Virus record (IMG/VR): IMGVR_UViG_2061766007_000905 | Direction: 5' to 3' (one strand) | DNA: 20,000 bases | Origin: an uncultured virus (IMG/VR IMGVR_UViG_2061766007_000905) | Taxonomy: Duplodnaviria > Heunggongvirae > Uroviricota > Caudoviricetes | Part shown: positions 3,791 to 18,489 of the stretch, one piece after another | Numbering within the stretch: position 1 is the stretch's first letter | Layout: each line of letters begins with the position of its first letter | Notes under the pieces: generated by a model | Told to the model about the DNA's origin: nothing | Databases searched by the model: none | What the model saw: only the letters and a program-made list of their open reading frames with translations | Made by a program: the position numbers and the translations under genes

Positions 3791-3861
3791 NNNNNNNNNN
3801 TAAATGAGTTCCTGGAGTTTGTAGGTAGCTTCTGCACAAAATCAAAAACCTTCATTTATAT

Positions 3862-3938
3862 GCTGTATTAGTTCAGTTGGTTTTTAGAACGACTCCTTGC
3901 CATGGAGTAGGTCACCAGTTCGAGCCTGGTATACAGCT
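3862..3938 (+). tRNA. tRNA-Gly(GCC)
   Basis: Acceptor GCTGTAT/ATACAGC, anticodon arm ACTCC-TTGCCAT-GGAGT, T arm ACCAG-TTCGAGC-CTGGT, U73. Confidence 0.92.
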
Positions 3939-3947
3939 CTAAATAAT

Positions 3948-4020
3948 GTGTCCATGGTGTAGTGGTTTAACATCAGTGACCGCCAGTCATTGGTCGCCGG
4001 TTCGAATCCGGCTGGACGTT
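3948..4020 (+). tRNA. tRNA-Gly(GCC), atypical (C33; G1-U72 and U2-G71)
   Basis: Acceptor GTGTCCA/TGGACGT, anticodon arm AGTGA-CCGCCAG-TCATT, T arm GCCGG-TTCGAAT-CCGGC. Confidence 0.82.
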
Positions 4021-4030
4021 CTAAAAATTT

Positions 4031-4103
4031 GCCTCAGTGGCGCAATTGGTAGCGCAGCTGACTCTTAATCAGTGGGTTGAAGGTTCGAGTCCTTCCTGGG
4101 GTA
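4031..4103 (+). tRNA. tRNA-Lys(CTT)
   Basis: Acceptor GCCTCAG/CTGGGGT, anticodon arm GCTGA-CTCTTAA-TCAGT, T arm GAAGG-TTCGAGT-CCTTC. Confidence 0.95.
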
Positions 4104-4113
4104 CGAAAATTAT

Positions 4114-4204
4114 GGGCACGTAGGCTAAAGAGTGAATAACCGGATTACCAGGAGGCTGTACGCAAGGAAGCCACCGCATACGGGTTCGAATCCCGTCGAG
4201 TCCA
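4114..4204 (+). ncRNA. tRNA-like RNA with Ala acceptor identity and no recognisable anticodon arm (mini-tmRNA/TLD-like)
   Basis: Acceptor GGGCACG/CGAGTCC-A (G3-U70, A73), perfect T arm ACGGG-TTCGAAT-CCCGT, internal helix GGAGGCT/AGCCACC; sits in the tRNA array with the same CTAAAA trailer. Confidence 0.7.
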
Positions 4205-4216
4205 CTAAAAATTTTT

Positions 4217-4289
4217 GCCTCTATATGATAATGGCCTAGTCGAGCTGACTCTTAATCAGCGGGTCCTGGTTCGAGTCCAGGTAGTGGCA
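4217..4289 (+). tRNA. tRNA-Lys(CTT), second divergent copy
   Basis: Acceptor GCCTCTA/TAGTGGC (one U-U mismatch), anticodon arm GCTGA-CTCTTAA-TCAGC, T arm CCTGG-TTCGAGT-CCAGG. Confidence 0.88.
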
Positions 4290-4297
4290 CTAAATAT

Positions 4298-4371
4298 GCG
4301 TCATTGGTGTAATGGCTTAACATGGCTGGCTTCCAACCAGCGGACTGTCGGTTCGAGTCCGACATGACGCT
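4298..4371 (+). tRNA. tRNA-Gly(TCC)
   Basis: Acceptor GCGTCAT/ATGACGC, anticodon arm GCTGG-CTTCCAA-CCAGC, T arm GTCGG-TTCGAGT-CCGAC, U73. Confidence 0.95.
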
Positions 4372-4382
4372 CTAAAATCATC

Positions 4383-4453
4383 CCATACGTAGTGTAACGG
4401 CAGCACAACAAACTGTGACTTTGTTAGATTGTGTTCGACTCACAACTTGTGGA
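4383..4453 (+). tRNA. tRNA-His(GTG), atypical (no encoded G-1, A73)
   Basis: Anticodon arm ACAAA-CTGTGAC-TTTGT, T arm TTGTG-TTCGACT-CACAA, acceptor CCATACG/CTTGTGG with one mismatch. Confidence 0.78.
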
Positions 4454-4520: not shown

Positions 4521-4552
4521 GGGTTGACGAAAGTCAATCCATTTTTTATATT
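4521..4552 (+). promoter_or_regulatory. sigma70-type promoter embedded in terminator-like hairpin
   Basis: TTGACG(4524)-N17-TATATT(4547); GGGTTGAC-GAAA-GTCAATCC hairpin followed by T tract. Confidence 0.8.
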
Positions 4553-4573: not shown

Positions 4574-5395
4574 ATGGGCGCATTGATTACAGAAGATTAT
4601 GCAAAGGAATGTCTTAATGAACTTAACGAAGCGGTAAAGATTAACCCTTCCATGTTCCGCGAAGACAAAGTAAAGTCGTTCTATCAGGACCTTTACGGTA
4701 CCGGTGACCAGAAAATTTATGATGTTTTCGGTGCATACAATAAGGTCTATGCGACCGAAATTCGTTTTACGGAAGACGAATTCAATGCGGTCAAAAATGT
4801 CGTTAAGGAATACGGTTTCGAAATTATTGAAGAAAGCAAGAAGGAATCTCGTGAAGAAGCGATGAAGCGACTCGGCAACGACTATAACCCGGTTCGTGAC
4901 GACTATGCGATTATTCTCCAGAAAGGCGAAGACCAGTTTTATTTGCATGCGTATAAGTCCTGTCCGAATCCTGGGCATTTCGTGAAGCATGCGAAGGCGA
5001 ACAAGCTTGAAGTTACTTATGGCTTTAACCGTTTCTGTGCCAACAAGGAAGATACACGGCATTTCTATACTACTCCGCAGACGCAGTTTATCATGGAGCA
5101 GTTTGACCCGAAGAATTTTAATGCGTTTATCGATATTCTTCGTGCAGGCTTGGAATTAAGACAGTATACTCAGGATAATTCAGATGATTATCATGACGTA
5201 TTGCGTGACCTGTATCATGAAGACGATAAGCGTAAGCGTTCTACCCTTAAGGGCCGTTTGCAGATTATTAAAAAGTATGAAGCGAAGCTCGTCGAGAAGG
5301 CCAAGAAGGCAGCTGAACGTGAAGCTAAGTTGGCTGCAAAGCAGGCCGAACGCGAAGCTAAGAAGGCAGCTAAGAAGGCAGCTAAGAAGAAGTAA
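4574..5395 (+). CDS. hypothetical protein with Lys/Ala-rich (KKAAK) C-terminal tail; paralog of 9783-10389
   Basis: AAGGAG SD before ATG 4574 within ORF 4481..5395; C-terminus AKKAAKKAAKKK. Confidence 0.85.
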   Translation: MGALITEDYAKECLNELNEAVKINPSMFREDKVKSFYQDLYGTGDQKIYDVFGAYNKVYATEIRFTEDEFNAVKNVVKEYGFEIIEESKKESREEAMKRLGNDYNPVRDDYAIILQKGEDQFYLHAYKSCPNPGHFVKHAKANKLEVTYGFNRFCANKEDTRHFYTTPQTQFIMEQFDPKNFNAFIDILRAGLELRQYTQDNSDDYHDVLRDLYHEDDKRKRSTLKGRLQIIKKYEAKLVEKAKKAAEREAKLAAKQAEREAKKAAKKAAKKK

Positions 5396-5535
5396 TATGA
5401 AACAAAAGTATAAGAGTATATGGTTGGATTGCCAGTTAATTAAAAAGAGTTGATATTTNNNNNNNNNNAAGGCAGCAAAGAAGAAGTAATATGAAACAAA
5501 ATTATAAGAGTATATGGTTGGATTGCCAGTTAATT

Positions 5536-9277: not shown

Positions 9278-9696
9278 ATGGGAAAATTAGTCAAAATCGA
9301 AAAACTCTTTCCATTTACTAAAGAAGAAATCGCTCAGATTAAAACAGGATTTAGTCCTTCACTAGATGAATTGTGGTTTCCATATTCTGATATTGATCCG
9401 AAGGATTTAGATTGCTTCTATGAGAAAGATAAGCCTGAAGAAAATAAGAAGGTATACGTAAGCTATATCGGTAATCCTGCATATTGGGATTGGATGATTA
9501 AAGACCGTATTAAGCTCGATAGCTATGATTATGGTTTCTGTGATAATGCCACTCAGGCTAGACTGTATGCAGAAGAACAGATGAAGAATGATGATAGAGA
9601 ATATTGCATTGTTCTTGAAGCCTTTGATGCACAAGCCGATTATGGTGAAAAGTTCTATTATAGAAATGGTCCTTATATCGGTAAGATTCCGCATCA
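9278..9696 (+). CDS. hypothetical protein (likely leaderless), 3' end lost in N gap
   Basis: ATG 9278 lies 7 nt after the -10 box; frame open to the gap at 9697. Confidence 0.75.
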
Positions 9697-9782
9697 NNNN
9701 NNNNNNNNNNNNNNNNNNNNNNNNNNNNNNNNNNNNNNNNNNNNNNNNNNNNNNNNNNNNNNNNNNNNNNNNNNNNNNNNNN

Positions 9783-10389
9783 ACTTGAAGAAGCAATCAA
9801 AATTAATCCTGATATGTTCAATCTCGATAAGGTTGCAGAATATAGCAAAGAATTACAGAAATTTGAGGGCAACTTCTTTGAAACTTTAAAGAAGCTTGAC
9901 CAAATTTATAAAGAAGAAGTTCGTTTTACCGAAGAAGAACGTAATTCAATTAAACAGGTCATTATTGATGTTGGTCATACAATTAAGGAAGAAGTCATAA
10001 AAGGAACTAAAGAAGAAATCGGCGAAGAATTGTTTAATCCTTTACGTGACGATTATTACATTGTACTTGATAATAATACATTAATTCATTTTCTAAAAAT
10101 TCATAAAAGACGCGGTGGTTTTGTTGTTGATGCTAAAGAAGGTATTAAAGTAGAATATAATATTCTTGAATTTTTTACTCCAGAAACATGTCAACGTTTC
10201 TTTAATACTGCTGAACTTGAACACGTGCTTTATAAGCTATTTGATGCAGAAGATTATTCTTTAGAATCTAATCTTGATAATCTTCGTAAGGCGTTTACAC
10301 TTAATTCTGAACCTGAATCTGACGATGATTATTGGAAGCATCGTGATGAGTATGAAGAAGAACGTAGAAAAGAAAGAAAAACGTTATAA
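9783..10389 (+). CDS. hypothetical protein, paralog of 4574-5395; 5' end lost in N gap
   Basis: LEEAIKINPDMF...EVRFTEEE...FNPLRDDY aligns with NEAVKINPSMF...EIRFTEDE...YNPVRDDY. Confidence 0.8.
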
Positions 10390-11978: not shown

Positions 11979-12431
11979 ATGAGACGATTGTTTATTATTA
12001 GAAAAGATTTGAATCTTCATGCCGGTAAACTTGCCGCTATGGTTGGACATTGTGCTGAAGGATATTGGATGAATATTATTCGTAACGATGCAAACACAGA
12101 ACAGTTCTTCAAGGACGGTATTGTAACTGGCTACAAGATTTATATCGATAATGATATAGTTACGGATTATATCAACGGTATATTTACAAAAACTATTTGT
12201 GAAGCTAAGAATTTGAACCACCTTATGAAAGTGGTCGATATTGCTAAGGAACTTGGGCTTCATGAAGGTACTGATTATGGCTTTATCGATGACGTCTGTA
12301 AGACTGATTTGACGCCAGAATTTACCGATGAAAATGGTGTCGGCCGTTGCCGTGTCGGTATATGGTTTAAACCATTATCTGATGAAATTAGTCATAAACT
12401 TAGTAAAAAATATCAACTATATAAAGGTTAA
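11979..12431 (+). CDS. pth2: peptidyl-tRNA hydrolase, Pth2 family
   Basis: IIRKDLNLHAGKLAAMVGHCA matches the Pth2 signature VVRxDLxMxxGKxAAQxxHA; later D-xx-KT and G-x-P motifs. Confidence 0.85.
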   Translation: MRRLFIIRKDLNLHAGKLAAMVGHCAEGYWMNIIRNDANTEQFFKDGIVTGYKIYIDNDIVTDYINGIFTKTICEAKNLNHLMKVVDIAKELGLHEGTDYGFIDDVCKTDLTPEFTDENGVGRCRVGIWFKPLSDEISHKLSKKYQLYKG

Positions 12432-12976: not shown

Positions 12977-13228
12977 ATGACTGGCTACGATCCGAAAGAC
13001 AGTAAAGAAAGACGCGTATTTAAGGCGTTTTGCTTTTGCAAATCAATGCAAAAGAAAGGACAGGATAAAAACGTAGCGCTACAAGTCGCCAGTAAGTATT
13101 ATCATGTTCCTGAAGAATCAGTCCGCGAATATGTAGAAGGTGAAGATAACGACGATATTTATTTTATGCTAAATGGCGCCATACCGATTGCAGCAAGTGA
13201 TATATTTGATCCGGGAGATTTTTGTTAG
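12977..13228 (+). CDS. hypothetical protein (possible small helical/HTH-like)
   Basis: 83 aa ORF, AAGGA SD. Confidence 0.75.
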   Translation: MTGYDPKDSKERRVFKAFCFCKSMQKKGQDKNVALQVASKYYHVPEESVREYVEGEDNDDIYFMLNGAIPIAASDIFDPGDFC

Positions 13229-13229
13229 C

Positions 13230-13949
13230 ATGAAAGTTGGATTAATTGGAAGTAATATCTGGTATAGCAAGTCCAAAGAAATATTTGAATCACAAGGAAT
13301 AGAATATAAGATTTATGATGTATCTTGTGTAGAACAAGGACTTGAACTGGCTATAGCCAATAAGTTGGACGGTTTCAACGTAACGAAACCGTTTAAAAAA
13401 GATATTGTCAAGTATATGGATTCATTGATGCCTGAAGCACAACGTATTGGGACTGTGAACTGTGTTAAAATCATAAATGATTGTTTTATCGGCGAAAATT
13501 TCGATGGCGAAGCATTCCGAATTTCTTTGGATCATTATGTCAGCAATCATGATGATTGGGAATTCGATTATCCGCATCGTATGGCTATTCTTGGGAATGG
13601 AGGAGTAGTTCCGGCTATTCTTACCGCACTTCATGACGCCACCGATTTAACTACTTCTAGTCATGAAATGACAGTATTTGCCCGTAATCCGAAGTGTATA
13701 GATGAAAAAAGTATTTCGGAATTCGATGCCAAGAAATTCGATCTTATCGTCAACACCATTCCTTTCGAAACCGGAATAGATATCAATTTCAATAATAAGA
13801 GTAAGTTCATCTATTATGATTTGAATTATGCTGAACCAAATTTACTTGTTAAAAAGGCTGAAAGGAATAAACACTGTTCCTGGTCAATCAACGGGTTGGA
13901 TATGCTTGAACGCCAGGCAGAAATGTCGCTTAAGTGGTGGAAGGAATAA
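13230..13949 (+). CDS. aroE: shikimate dehydrogenase family protein
   Basis: GFNVTKPFK, AQRIGTVNCV, GENFDG, ILGNGG, LIVNT, YDLNY and GLDMLERQA motifs; ATG 13230 follows the upstream stop. Confidence 0.88.
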   Translation: MKVGLIGSNIWYSKSKEIFESQGIEYKIYDVSCVEQGLELAIANKLDGFNVTKPFKKDIVKYMDSLMPEAQRIGTVNCVKIINDCFIGENFDGEAFRISLDHYVSNHDDWEFDYPHRMAILGNGGVVPAILTALHDATDLTTSSHEMTVFARNPKCIDEKSISEFDAKKFDLIVNTIPFETGIDINFNNKSKFIYYDLNYAEPNLLVKKAERNKHCSWSINGLDMLERQAEMSLKWWKE

Positions 13950-14217: not shown

Positions 14218-15147
14218 TTATTCGAATTTTATATCGTAAGTCGCATCTTCTACTTCTTCAATAGTTAGCTTTTTATTGAATAACTGTTTTAATTTTTCCA
14301 TTAAACCTTTAGCTTCTTCCCTAGATAATGGGCTTGTATTTATGTTTAATGTAATCGTATTAGCTTCTTCTATTGGAGTAGAAAGAATAAATGCTGCATC
14401 ATATTCTTGTGTAAAGAACTTTATACCATAATCTCTAATAGTCTTATTTTTCCATGCTTCATCACGGCCAGGCATACAGTCATACCCGATATGCGTCGCG
14501 ATAAATGATGATTTGCCAGCCTTGGCATTAGAATAGATTGTATAGAATTCATTATCTCCGTGCGGCGTGGACAGTAATATTACTTGCGAATTAACGCTGG
14601 CACTGACTGTTGGGAATACGGACTTCATAAATTGGTCGAGCGATTTTTCTTTACAGTATGCAAATTCGTCAAAAACAATTAAGTCTATATGCTTGCCTAG
14701 AACTGCACTGCTTGAAAACGGCGCATTAAAGATATATGAACCGTTTTCGAATTCGATGCGTCCGTGTTTGCTTTTGGTAATTTTGACTTTAAGAAAATCC
14801 GGAAGATGTTCATATAATTCCATTACTTTTTCAAGTATAGATCTAGACTGGAGTTCTGTATTTGCAAGAATCGCGATAGTTCTTTGCTCGTTGAATAACG
14901 CGAACCACAAAAGATATATTATGGCAATAGTCGTTTTTCCACATTGCCTAGGAGCTACCACAACATGGTTATGCTTCATTTCTTTTCTATTAATCCAGCT
15001 CTTGGCAAACTTACGTAAAAGCTTTGCTTGAAACTGGTAAGGCCGAAATTCAGTAAAACCATCAGCGGTAAGTATTTCGATATATTGTATAAATTTGTTG
15101 ATGTTTTTAGCACACGCTTTACGTATGCTTGATTGTTTGATATTCAT
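14218..15147 (-). CDS. terminase large subunit-like ATPase domain (T4 gp17-like), lacking the C-terminal nuclease domain
   Basis: FRPYQFQ adenine-binding motif, Walker A APRQCGKTT, Walker B IVFDEFAY, motif III LSTPHG, QEY; only ~55 aa follow QEY. Confidence 0.85.
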   Translation of the reverse strand: MNIKQSSIRKACAKNINKFIQYIEILTADGFTEFRPYQFQAKLLRKFAKSWINRKEMKHNHVVVAPRQCGKTTIAIIYLLWFALFNEQRTIAILANTELQSRSILEKVMELYEHLPDFLKVKITKSKHGRIEFENGSYIFNAPFSSSAVLGKHIDLIVFDEFAYCKEKSLDQFMKSVFPTVSASVNSQVILLSTPHGDNEFYTIYSNAKAGKSSFIATHIGYDCMPGRDEAWKNKTIRDYGIKFFTQEYDAAFILSTPIEEANTITLNINTSPLSREEAKGLMEKLKQLFNKKLTIEEVEDATYDIKFE

Positions 15148-17819: not shown

Positions 17820-18489
17820 ATGATTGAAATCACCGCAACAATCTTCGGTCTGCTTCAAGGCATGCTTGTCATGCTTAATAAGCGTTGTAACTGGATTTTT
17901 TATGTAATCCAGATGGTATTGATGATAGTCTTTTCTGCACAAAATCATCTTTATGGCGACGTAGTGAACAGCTCTGTTTATATCGTCATCGGCATNNNNN
18001 NNNNNCAACTGGATTTTTTATGTAATCCAGATGGTATTGATGATAGTCTTTTCTGTACAAAACCATCTTTATGGCGACGTAGTGAACAGCTCTGTTTATA
18101 TCGTCATCGGCATGATCGGCTGGTTTCTTTGGGGAAAAGACGTTGGACAAAAAGTAACAAAGGCAAGCATACTGGAAACGGTCATTTACTTGACGGTGAT
18201 GATTTTTGGTACAATCGGCGTTACAAAGTGGCTGTCTGGAACAGATGACCCTTTACCAACGTTAGATGCATTTACGACAGTTTCTTCTTTCGTGGCAACT
18301 ATCTTGATGGTAAGACATAAGATTGATACGTGGATTATCTGGTTCATAAATGATATTGCATATTGCATTGAATACTGGTTACTTCCAGATCAGGCATTAT
18401 ATTTGCTTGGCTTGAATTTCATATGGACAGGAATGGCAGTCGGATCTTTTATTATTTGGTTTAAGGAATTAAAAAAGGATATGGTATAA
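17820..18489 (+). CDS. pnuC: PnuC-family nicotinamide riboside/vitamin transporter; split by N-gap duplication
   Basis: Polytopic membrane protein with GWFLW, TDDPLPTLDAFTT and WIIWFINDI motifs; ~110 nt duplicated around gap 17996-18005. Confidence 0.85.

Follow-up and report, generated by a model that had tools for sequence, protein, structure and literature searches.

The window analysed here, a 20,000-nucleotide stretch of an uncultured Caudoviricetes virus, contains a six-tRNA array in which a 91-nt tRNA-like gene (the element) is positioned between two tRNA-Lys(CTT) genes; the original prediction had placed it inside the tRNA array. The features of the locus are as follows; positions within the element are counted from 4114 as 1, while the residues of acceptor-stem pairs carry tRNA numbers.

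3862–4453, + strand: tRNA array Gly(GCC), Gly(GCC), Lys(CTT), element, Lys(CTT), Gly(TCC), His(GTG), with spacers of ~8–12 nt
4114–4204, + strand: anticodon-less tRNA-like gene with an Ala-type acceptor, 91 nt (from the sequence; same ends in seven other contigs, cleanly missing from contig L122)
4114–4120, + strand: 5′ strand of the acceptor stem, G1 G2 G3 C4 A5 C6 G7 (invariant in 3/3 haplotypes)
4121–4128, + strand: tRNA-type core start, U8 A9, positions 10–13, A14 A15 (from alignment to L147:3801)
4129–4179, + strand: rebuilt middle without a canonical anticodon arm, folds A and B both being candidates (fold predictions)
4180–4196, + strand: T arm, 5 bp, the first pair A-U in the window and G-C in L305/L321/L345 (compensatory)
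4197–4204, + strand: 3′ strand of the acceptor stem with U70 and discriminator A73, CCA not encoded (from the sequence)
4521–4552, + strand: terminator-like hairpin and sigma-70-like site, overlapping each other past the 3′ end of the array (matches to consensus only)

The acceptor stem of the element is composed of the pairs G1-C72, G2-C71, G3·U70, C4-G69, C6-G67 and G7-C66 with A73 as the discriminator, and it is interrupted by an A5·A68 mismatch, so that six of the seven acceptor pairs are formed; the T arm is a perfect stem (5/5 pairs) with a standard T loop. The terminal pairs, A73 and the perfect T arm that had been claimed for this stretch are all present in the sequence, and its description as an anticodon-less tRNA-like RNA with alanine identity holds. 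The acceptor determinants are invariant in all three haplotypes. A73 is followed by CTA, not CCA, and a CTA trailer is also observed at several neighbouring tRNA genes. The element was not called when ARAGORN was run on the array, and in the Rfam scan it fell under every gathering score: the tRNA model RF00005 gave 25.0 bits (cut-off 29; E 0.0026) with only the ends and the T arm aligned, and RF00023 gave 20.4–22.3 bits (cut-off 47). ARAGORN, RF00005 and a strict scripted rule agree that the element contains no 5-bp anticodon stem with a 7-nt U33 loop, as the prediction had it, and the gene is therefore not an ordinary tRNA with a standard anticodon. The eight letters that follow its 5′ acceptor strand are those of the tRNA-Ser(GCT) of a sister phage (L147:3801), and U8/A14, together with A15 and the U before the T stem, fit a tRNA core. 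An Rfam match to SpF41 (16.4 bits, E 3.3) was taken for chance tRNA-likeness.

Elsewhere in the window, the tRNA-Gly(GCC) at 3948–4021 has a non-standard anticodon loop (C33, A37, G38) that is also present in L345 and is possibly a nuclease-evading variant. Pfam matches were obtained for a PTH2 peptidyl-tRNA hydrolase (11979–12431), a shikimate dehydrogenase N domain (13173–13949), a T4-type terminase N domain (14218–15147, minus strand) and an NMN transporter (18031–18489). Short duplications flanking N runs at 2170–2460, 5360–5530 and 17950–18050 are typical of scaffolding artefacts.

Two folds were considered for the middle segment. Fold A is a helix of positions 38–44 with 56–62 (4151–4157/4169–4175) that carries a GNRA cap and contains an A·A mismatch; it is the GGAGGCT/AGCCACC helix of the original prediction, and it is favoured in the window haplotype, with pair probabilities of 0.63–0.75, but drops to 0.00–0.01 in the other two haplotypes, where G57A breaks C43-G57. 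Fold B forms a D stem (10–13/41–44; 4123–4126/4154–4157) around a hairpin at 4132–4148 and the GG at 4151–4152, followed by an arm at 4158–4162/4175–4179. When the acceptor and T stems were forced in L305, one joint-lowest-energy fold was such a cloverleaf (10–13/41–44; hairpin 19–22/32–35; GG 38–39; arm 45–49/62–66), and in the window haplotype the probability of fold B is ~0 (10–13/41–44 = 0.0). Each of the two folds has one pair broken in two of the three haplotypes. The claim that a canonical D stem is missing was too strong, since positions 10–13 can pair with 25–28 (3/4 pairs) or with 41–44 (4/4 pairs, two of them G·U).

The top of the acceptor stem is the sole part stable in the predictions for all three haplotypes, the T stem reaching 0.15–0.17 in L340. 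Folding of the whole element was no better than that of shuffled sequences (z +0.55), and a second run gave +0.65 vs −0.64 to −1.96 for six neighbouring tRNAs. Covariation, which had been proposed as a check, was tested over the three haplotypes and was not significant, the observed value being reached by 163/500 and 142/500 shuffles. An imperfect 8-nt tandem is found at positions 21–28/29–36, with six of eight letters alike.

The element was found with the same boundaries in seven other contigs, as three haplotypes that differ by five changes or fewer. Three viral contigs (411, 291 and 90 kb; three of the five matches) carry identical copies and may not be independent of the source of the window; the best-matching runs bear the label bovine gut metagenome. 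In two DNA runs of other studies, contigs span the element (4047–4295 and 4030–4295) with one letter different, which shows that it is not an assembly artefact. A structural pattern run over metagenomes returned 42 stretches, four of which are this element (L340, L305, L321 and L345). The L340 haplotype differs from the window by G57A, and that of L305/L321/L345 by C50U, G57A, C64U, and A67G with U83C, the last two converting an A-U pair of the T stem to G-C; this compensatory change is the only one of its kind. Positions 1–49 and the acceptor are invariant in the three haplotypes, and the chance that all five changes would fall outside 1–49 is 0.021 if placement is uniform. In the RNA runs X17 and X18 no contig spans the element; the contigs there come from mixed libraries and have no bearing on expression.

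The element lies between two Lys genes in the window, in L002/L003/L005 and in L340, and follows a Gly gene in the reordered array of L305/L321/L345, while in L122 one Lys gene directly follows the other and the element is cleanly missing. It is also absent from the complete relatives G003 (capsid 92%) and G007. Given these different array contexts and the clean absences, the element behaves like an accessory gene cassette whose ends are exact and which is gained, lost and reshuffled. Searches beyond these contigs returned no diverged homolog. Covariance model R1 found nothing but ordinary tRNAs in G001, G003–G006 and G007–G011, which are mostly fragments with G003 and G007 complete, and just the three identical copies in 34 array loci; relaxed patterns on viral contigs gave 19 and 43 stretches, each set including two identical copies and no diverged homolog. 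The species genomes contain a single exact 19-base match in a context that is not tRNA-like, and blastn against annotated phages gave T-arm-sized matches only, with none of 89 records covering 80% of the query. The original prediction had named a lack of conserved homologs as the mark of a decaying gene; homologs exist, in seven contigs and three haplotypes, but their occurrence is patchy.

The divergence of the element was compared with that of its neighbours. Between L002 and the L305/L345 type, the element shows 5/91 changes, and the tRNAs show 3/74 (Lys), 6/74 (Gly) and 1/76 (Asp). Of the genes neighbouring the L305/L345 copies, two are identical to their G003 counterparts. The capsid genes of G002 and G003 differ at 72/217 four-fold sites, a distance at which ~30 changes would have accumulated in neutrally evolving DNA. 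The low divergence of the element thus suggests purifying selection. Recent exchange rather than selection may also explain it, because the arrays recombine: a third neighbour, Asp, is nearer to L002 (2 vs 14 differences).

The element is found in a single lineage of T4-type-capsid phages of ~410 kb, within their tRNA arrays. The near-complete 411-kb sister record G002 carries a capsid gene of the Gp23 family and several clusters of tRNA genes, as well as a full tmRNA of its own (tag ANTYAMAA; G002:117222–117578); no tmRNA above the cut-off was found in the complete relative G003. Both G002 and G003 encode a PF01743 nucleotidyltransferase (CCA/polyA family) and RtcB, and a gene for SmpB or for a TROVE/Ro60 protein was found in neither. 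The four ORFs nearest the array gave no Pfam match.

The original prediction had described the gene as mini-tmRNA-like, with a stemless D loop and with helix 2 standing where the anticodon arm would be. Candidate RNAs of that type were collected in a loose scan of viral contigs (at least 116 stretches), from which tmRNA-like RNAs consisting of the tRNA-like domain (TLD) only were picked by eye. Among the matches listed, ten were such compact genes of 65–85 nt with no tag frame (L026, L030, L034, L036, L042, L060, L075, L095, L112 and L120), and DS6A-type RNAs look widespread in phages. L184, at first taken for one of them, is a permuted tmRNA gene and was left out; L075 and L095 were omitted from alignment A5 owing to a one-column shift and used as held-out tests. 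In all nine aligned TLD-only RNAs the D loop has the invariant motif U-G-G-x-U-U-x-G-A, 3–5 nt after the acceptor strand, and the linker before the T stem has an invariant A-C. The element has 21 nt before its GG, misses the U, G and A of the motif, and reads GCAU or GUAU in place of the A-C linker. A model built from seven TLD-only RNAs (R2) recovered the three others held out at 43.1–59.5 bits, with ordinary tRNAs scoring up to 23.9, and gave no full-length match at E ≤ 1 to the element in L002, L340 or L305. RF00023 alone is a weak test, as only three of the nine by-eye TLD-only RNAs pass it (69.5–72 bits) and six lie under the cut-off; in G002 the element ranks second to the true tmRNA (20.4 bits), and an ordinary G003 tRNA reaches 20.2. 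The acceptor stem of the element equals that of the sister phage's tmRNA at 12 of 14 positions plus A73, and the outer four acceptor pairs are also common to most of the phage's Ala tRNAs. With D-loop length, motif and linker at odds with all nine TLD-only RNAs, no R2 match, and a helix 2 that is not kept among the haplotypes, the mini-tmRNA layout was abandoned, and on present sequence evidence the view of the element as a miniature tmRNA or tmRNA derivative is not supported.

Anticodon arms that have been rebuilt are frequent among phage contigs and are not Ala-specific. When acceptors with G3·U70 and A73 followed by a long middle segment were searched for, 43 stretches were returned, 35 of them distinct and 31 with intact acceptor and T stems, and 24 of these 31, the element included, have no canonical anticodon arm. 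The G3-C70 control returned at least 111 stretches; among the matches listed 58 were distinct, 54 intact and 31 of the 54 without a canonical arm. The anticodon-arm rule was our own and strict, so that some molecules counted as lacking the arm are slightly irregular true tRNAs, and both patterns favour long molecules. Close analogues of the element are found in L154/L186, a pair with Ala acceptors and a hairpin in the D loop, in which the short arm is capped by a tetraloop and differs between the two by a compensatory change. Among the matches listed, one G3-C70 tRNA-like form accounts for 39 of 111 stretches. Normal D and T arms with a long hairpin or insert replacing the anticodon loop are seen in L151–L193 and L194–L304, and several tRNA-like matches resemble tRNAs whose anticodon loop is interrupted by an insert.

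An 80-nt tRNA-like family was also observed in sister arrays, with 15 distinct sequences (L002:1183–1263, L122:7879–7960 and L444–L477; alignment A6). It is composed of a 7-bp acceptor, a 5-bp/7-nt arm that begins 8 nt after the acceptor, in the place of the D arm, a D-loop-like GG-A segment and a T arm, and its anticodons are only those of Arg (TCT, TCG, ACG). The invariance of the GG-A segment follows from its use as the search pattern, and non-tRNA-like ones among the 34 matches were dropped. In this alignment 99% of cells pair, 17/21 pairs show compensatory changes and 0/500 shuffles reach the observed covariation; a covarying pair 10:48 (3/15) suggests a D stem that would enclose the anticodon arm. 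ARAGORN names none of the 15 (one is reported as 'tRNA-???'), and Rfam gives tRNA only, with 32.9 bits for L457. No Arg-type RNA was found in the window, whose upstream side has an N gap at 3791–3800. The Arg-type RNA is better supported than the element.

Related kinds of RNA include allo-tRNAs, non-proteinogenic tRNAs and YrlA. YrlA and Y RNA-like mimics are tRNA-shaped RNAs that do not decode. The element resembles them in this respect, but it has no RF02553 match and no Ro60-family gene was found in G002 or G003. T4 RNA C and RNA D sit in the T4 tRNA cluster. Like the element they are phage non-coding RNAs, and the element has no sequence match to annotated phages over 80% of its length; their function is given as unknown in the available part of PMC9697503. 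Canonical tRNAs (RF00005, with an Ala acceptor and a class II D-arm start) share with the element the 7-bp acceptor, U8 A9, A14 A15 with the U before the T stem, the T arm, and also array position and trailer; they differ from it in having a 5-bp/7-nt anticodon arm and in clearing the RF00005 cut-off. TLD-only tmRNAs (DS6A, and the CDS-less plastid and mitochondrial tmRNAs) are similar in their Ala-type acceptor, T arm, want of a tag frame and anticodon, and phage-borne occurrence, and are unlike the element in the short spacing of their GG and in their conserved D-loop motif and linker. The Lak megaphage tRNAs with 'introns' or inserts, as excerpted from PMC6784885, are likewise over-long jumbo-phage tRNA genes that are kept among strains and missed by standard annotation, whereas removal of one insert from the element restores no cloverleaf. 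The open-licence papers searched, supplements being outside their scope, contain no description of the element, the anticodon-less class or the Arg-type RNA, and jumbo-phage tRNA tables may already list such genes.

The element is a real, lineage-restricted, anticodon-less Ala-type tRNA-like gene. The reading that we favour, held tentatively and as possible rather than probable, is that of an accessory RNA derived from a tRNA: processing, CCA addition and alanylation would take place, decoding would not, and the RNA would act as a sink for whichever host factors recognise the acceptor/T half. On this view the element is one case among a broad set of phage tRNA-like RNAs whose D and anticodon arms are rebuilt. 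The element would be co-transcribed with the array and cut out like the neighbouring tRNAs; CCA would then be added, possibly by the phage's own nucleotidyltransferase of the CCA/polyA family, and host AlaRS, blind to the anticodon, would alanylate it. Since it could not decode, the acceptor/T half would be its active part, a decoy or sink that occupies a host factor specific for that half of tRNA; an acceptor-stem-modifying toxin or some other anti-phage enzyme that targets tRNA would be examples. G3·U70 and A73 are given as bacterial Ala determinants, with no anticodon element listed, in the accessible part of PMC9976931, where G4-C69 is listed as well; the C4-G69 pair of the element and its A5·A68 mismatch argue against Ala charging, and C4-G69 is also present in most of the phage's own Ala tRNAs and in its tmRNA. 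Since the anticodon-less class extends beyond Ala acceptors, alanylation may not be what matters. Acceptor-stem-acting anti-phage toxins are mentioned in the portion available of 10.64898/2026.07.10.737580. Two published cases of phage tRNAs acting against defence weigh against a sink or decoy, since both, as far as the excerpts go, work by supplying functional tRNA: an anticodon change abolished rescue in PMC11555353, and in the OLD preprint (10.64898/2026.07.10.737580) a phage tRNA counters the defence while host tRNA is still degraded. The original prediction had also suggested a decoy; a decoy of anticodon nucleases is unlikely because the element has no anticodon loop, and the idea in its general form is retained in the sink reading.

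The main rival, somewhat unlikely in our estimate, is a degenerate tRNA gene, arisen by insertion or duplication within a tRNA and carried and reshuffled with the arrays with no function of its own. Its narrow and patchy distribution, poor folding z scores, acceptor mismatch, imperfect tandem and want of a middle fold common to all haplotypes would be expected of such a gene, and the arrays hold many other broken-looking tRNA-like genes. Decay is harder to reconcile with a divergence equal to that of working tRNAs, the compensatory T-stem change, the placement of all five changes outside 1–49, and the exact gene boundaries retained in different array contexts. Non-proteinogenic tRNAs serve as non-ribosomal amino-acid donors in some bacteria. 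By analogy, AlaRS could charge the element and an Ala-tRNA-dependent transferase could draw on it for cell wall, lipid or a phage product, the missing anticodon keeping it from translation; its Ala identity is complete without an anticodon, but the T stem is ordinary-looking, the ORFs nearest the array gave no Pfam match, and the wider class is not restricted to Ala, which makes this role improbable.

Two further alternatives were considered. A TLD-only tmRNA mimic, binding SmpB/EF-Tu and inhibiting or short-cutting trans-translation, would have a precedent in the TLD-only tmRNA of mycobacteriophage DS6A (in the parts available of PMC4131195 and PMC11915505), so that a correct tmRNA call would add a member to a known kind. 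The similarity of its acceptor to that of the sister phage's tmRNA and its rank in G002 point the same way, and a low RF00023 score is not decisive alone; we nevertheless consider this very improbable, as the D loop and linker depart from all TLD-only RNAs aligned, R2 finds no full-length match vs 43–60 bits in the held-out TLDs, an ordinary tRNA scores nearly as high with RF00023, the helix-2 analogue is not kept, and the start U8-A9...A14-A15 is of tRNA type. G002 moreover has a full tmRNA, and neither it nor G003 has an SmpB gene. A tRNA with removable inserts would instead use a stem of 38–42/58–62 with an 8-nt insert in a CU-GUA-AA loop, and after excision RtcB would ligate the product into an Ala-acceptor tRNA with a Tyr anticodon, either mistranslating or nuclease-resistant. 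With A57 (4/4 variant loci) the loop does read C-U-G-U-A...A-A, the phage encodes RtcB, tRNA 'introns' are reported in Lak phages (in the excerpt of PMC6784885), and several long tRNA-like matches resemble tRNAs with such an insert; but a second insert, in the D loop, must be tolerated, the stem has a probability of 0.00–0.01 in the A57 haplotypes, and the window has G57. This explanation is accordingly the most improbable of those considered.

The sink reading could be extended to a class. Jumbo phages may keep chargeable, non-decoding tRNA mimics, with a hairpin-enclosing D stem and a rebuilt anticodon site, as a counter-defence against enzymes that attack or sense the acceptor/elbow half, the element being the Ala member beside the Arg-anticodon form; we regard this broader proposal as doubtful. 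A conserved chargeable, non-decoding RNA would, if real, point to a second anti-defence route, by decoy or sink, beside tRNA supply. Taken alone the element makes a moderate case, its distribution being narrow and its predicted middle fold varying between haplotypes; in the survey, genes of this sort turn up frequently in phage arrays, where ARAGORN and Rfam cut-offs often discard them.

Further unusual tRNA-like genes were observed in the sister phages. A second Ala-identity element (G3·U70, A73) with no normal anticodon stem is located at L122:4365–4439 and L123:2265–2342 and scores 22.3 bits with the TLD-only model. Odd genes at L122:7344–7417, L122:8509–8602, L145:~1800–1885, L146:~1490–1600 and L146:~9440–9800 include a GNRA-tetraloop-capped anticodon arm, hairpins inserted in D loops, and anticodon-arm inserts of 40–50 nt that share a short recurring motif, which is also found between genes. 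A conserved non-coding element of ~137 nt (L002:1654–1790, and in L305, L340 and L122), absent from the window and with 5–7 differences among strains, contains an anticodon hairpin resembling that of tRNA-Gly(GCC) but no tRNA ends.
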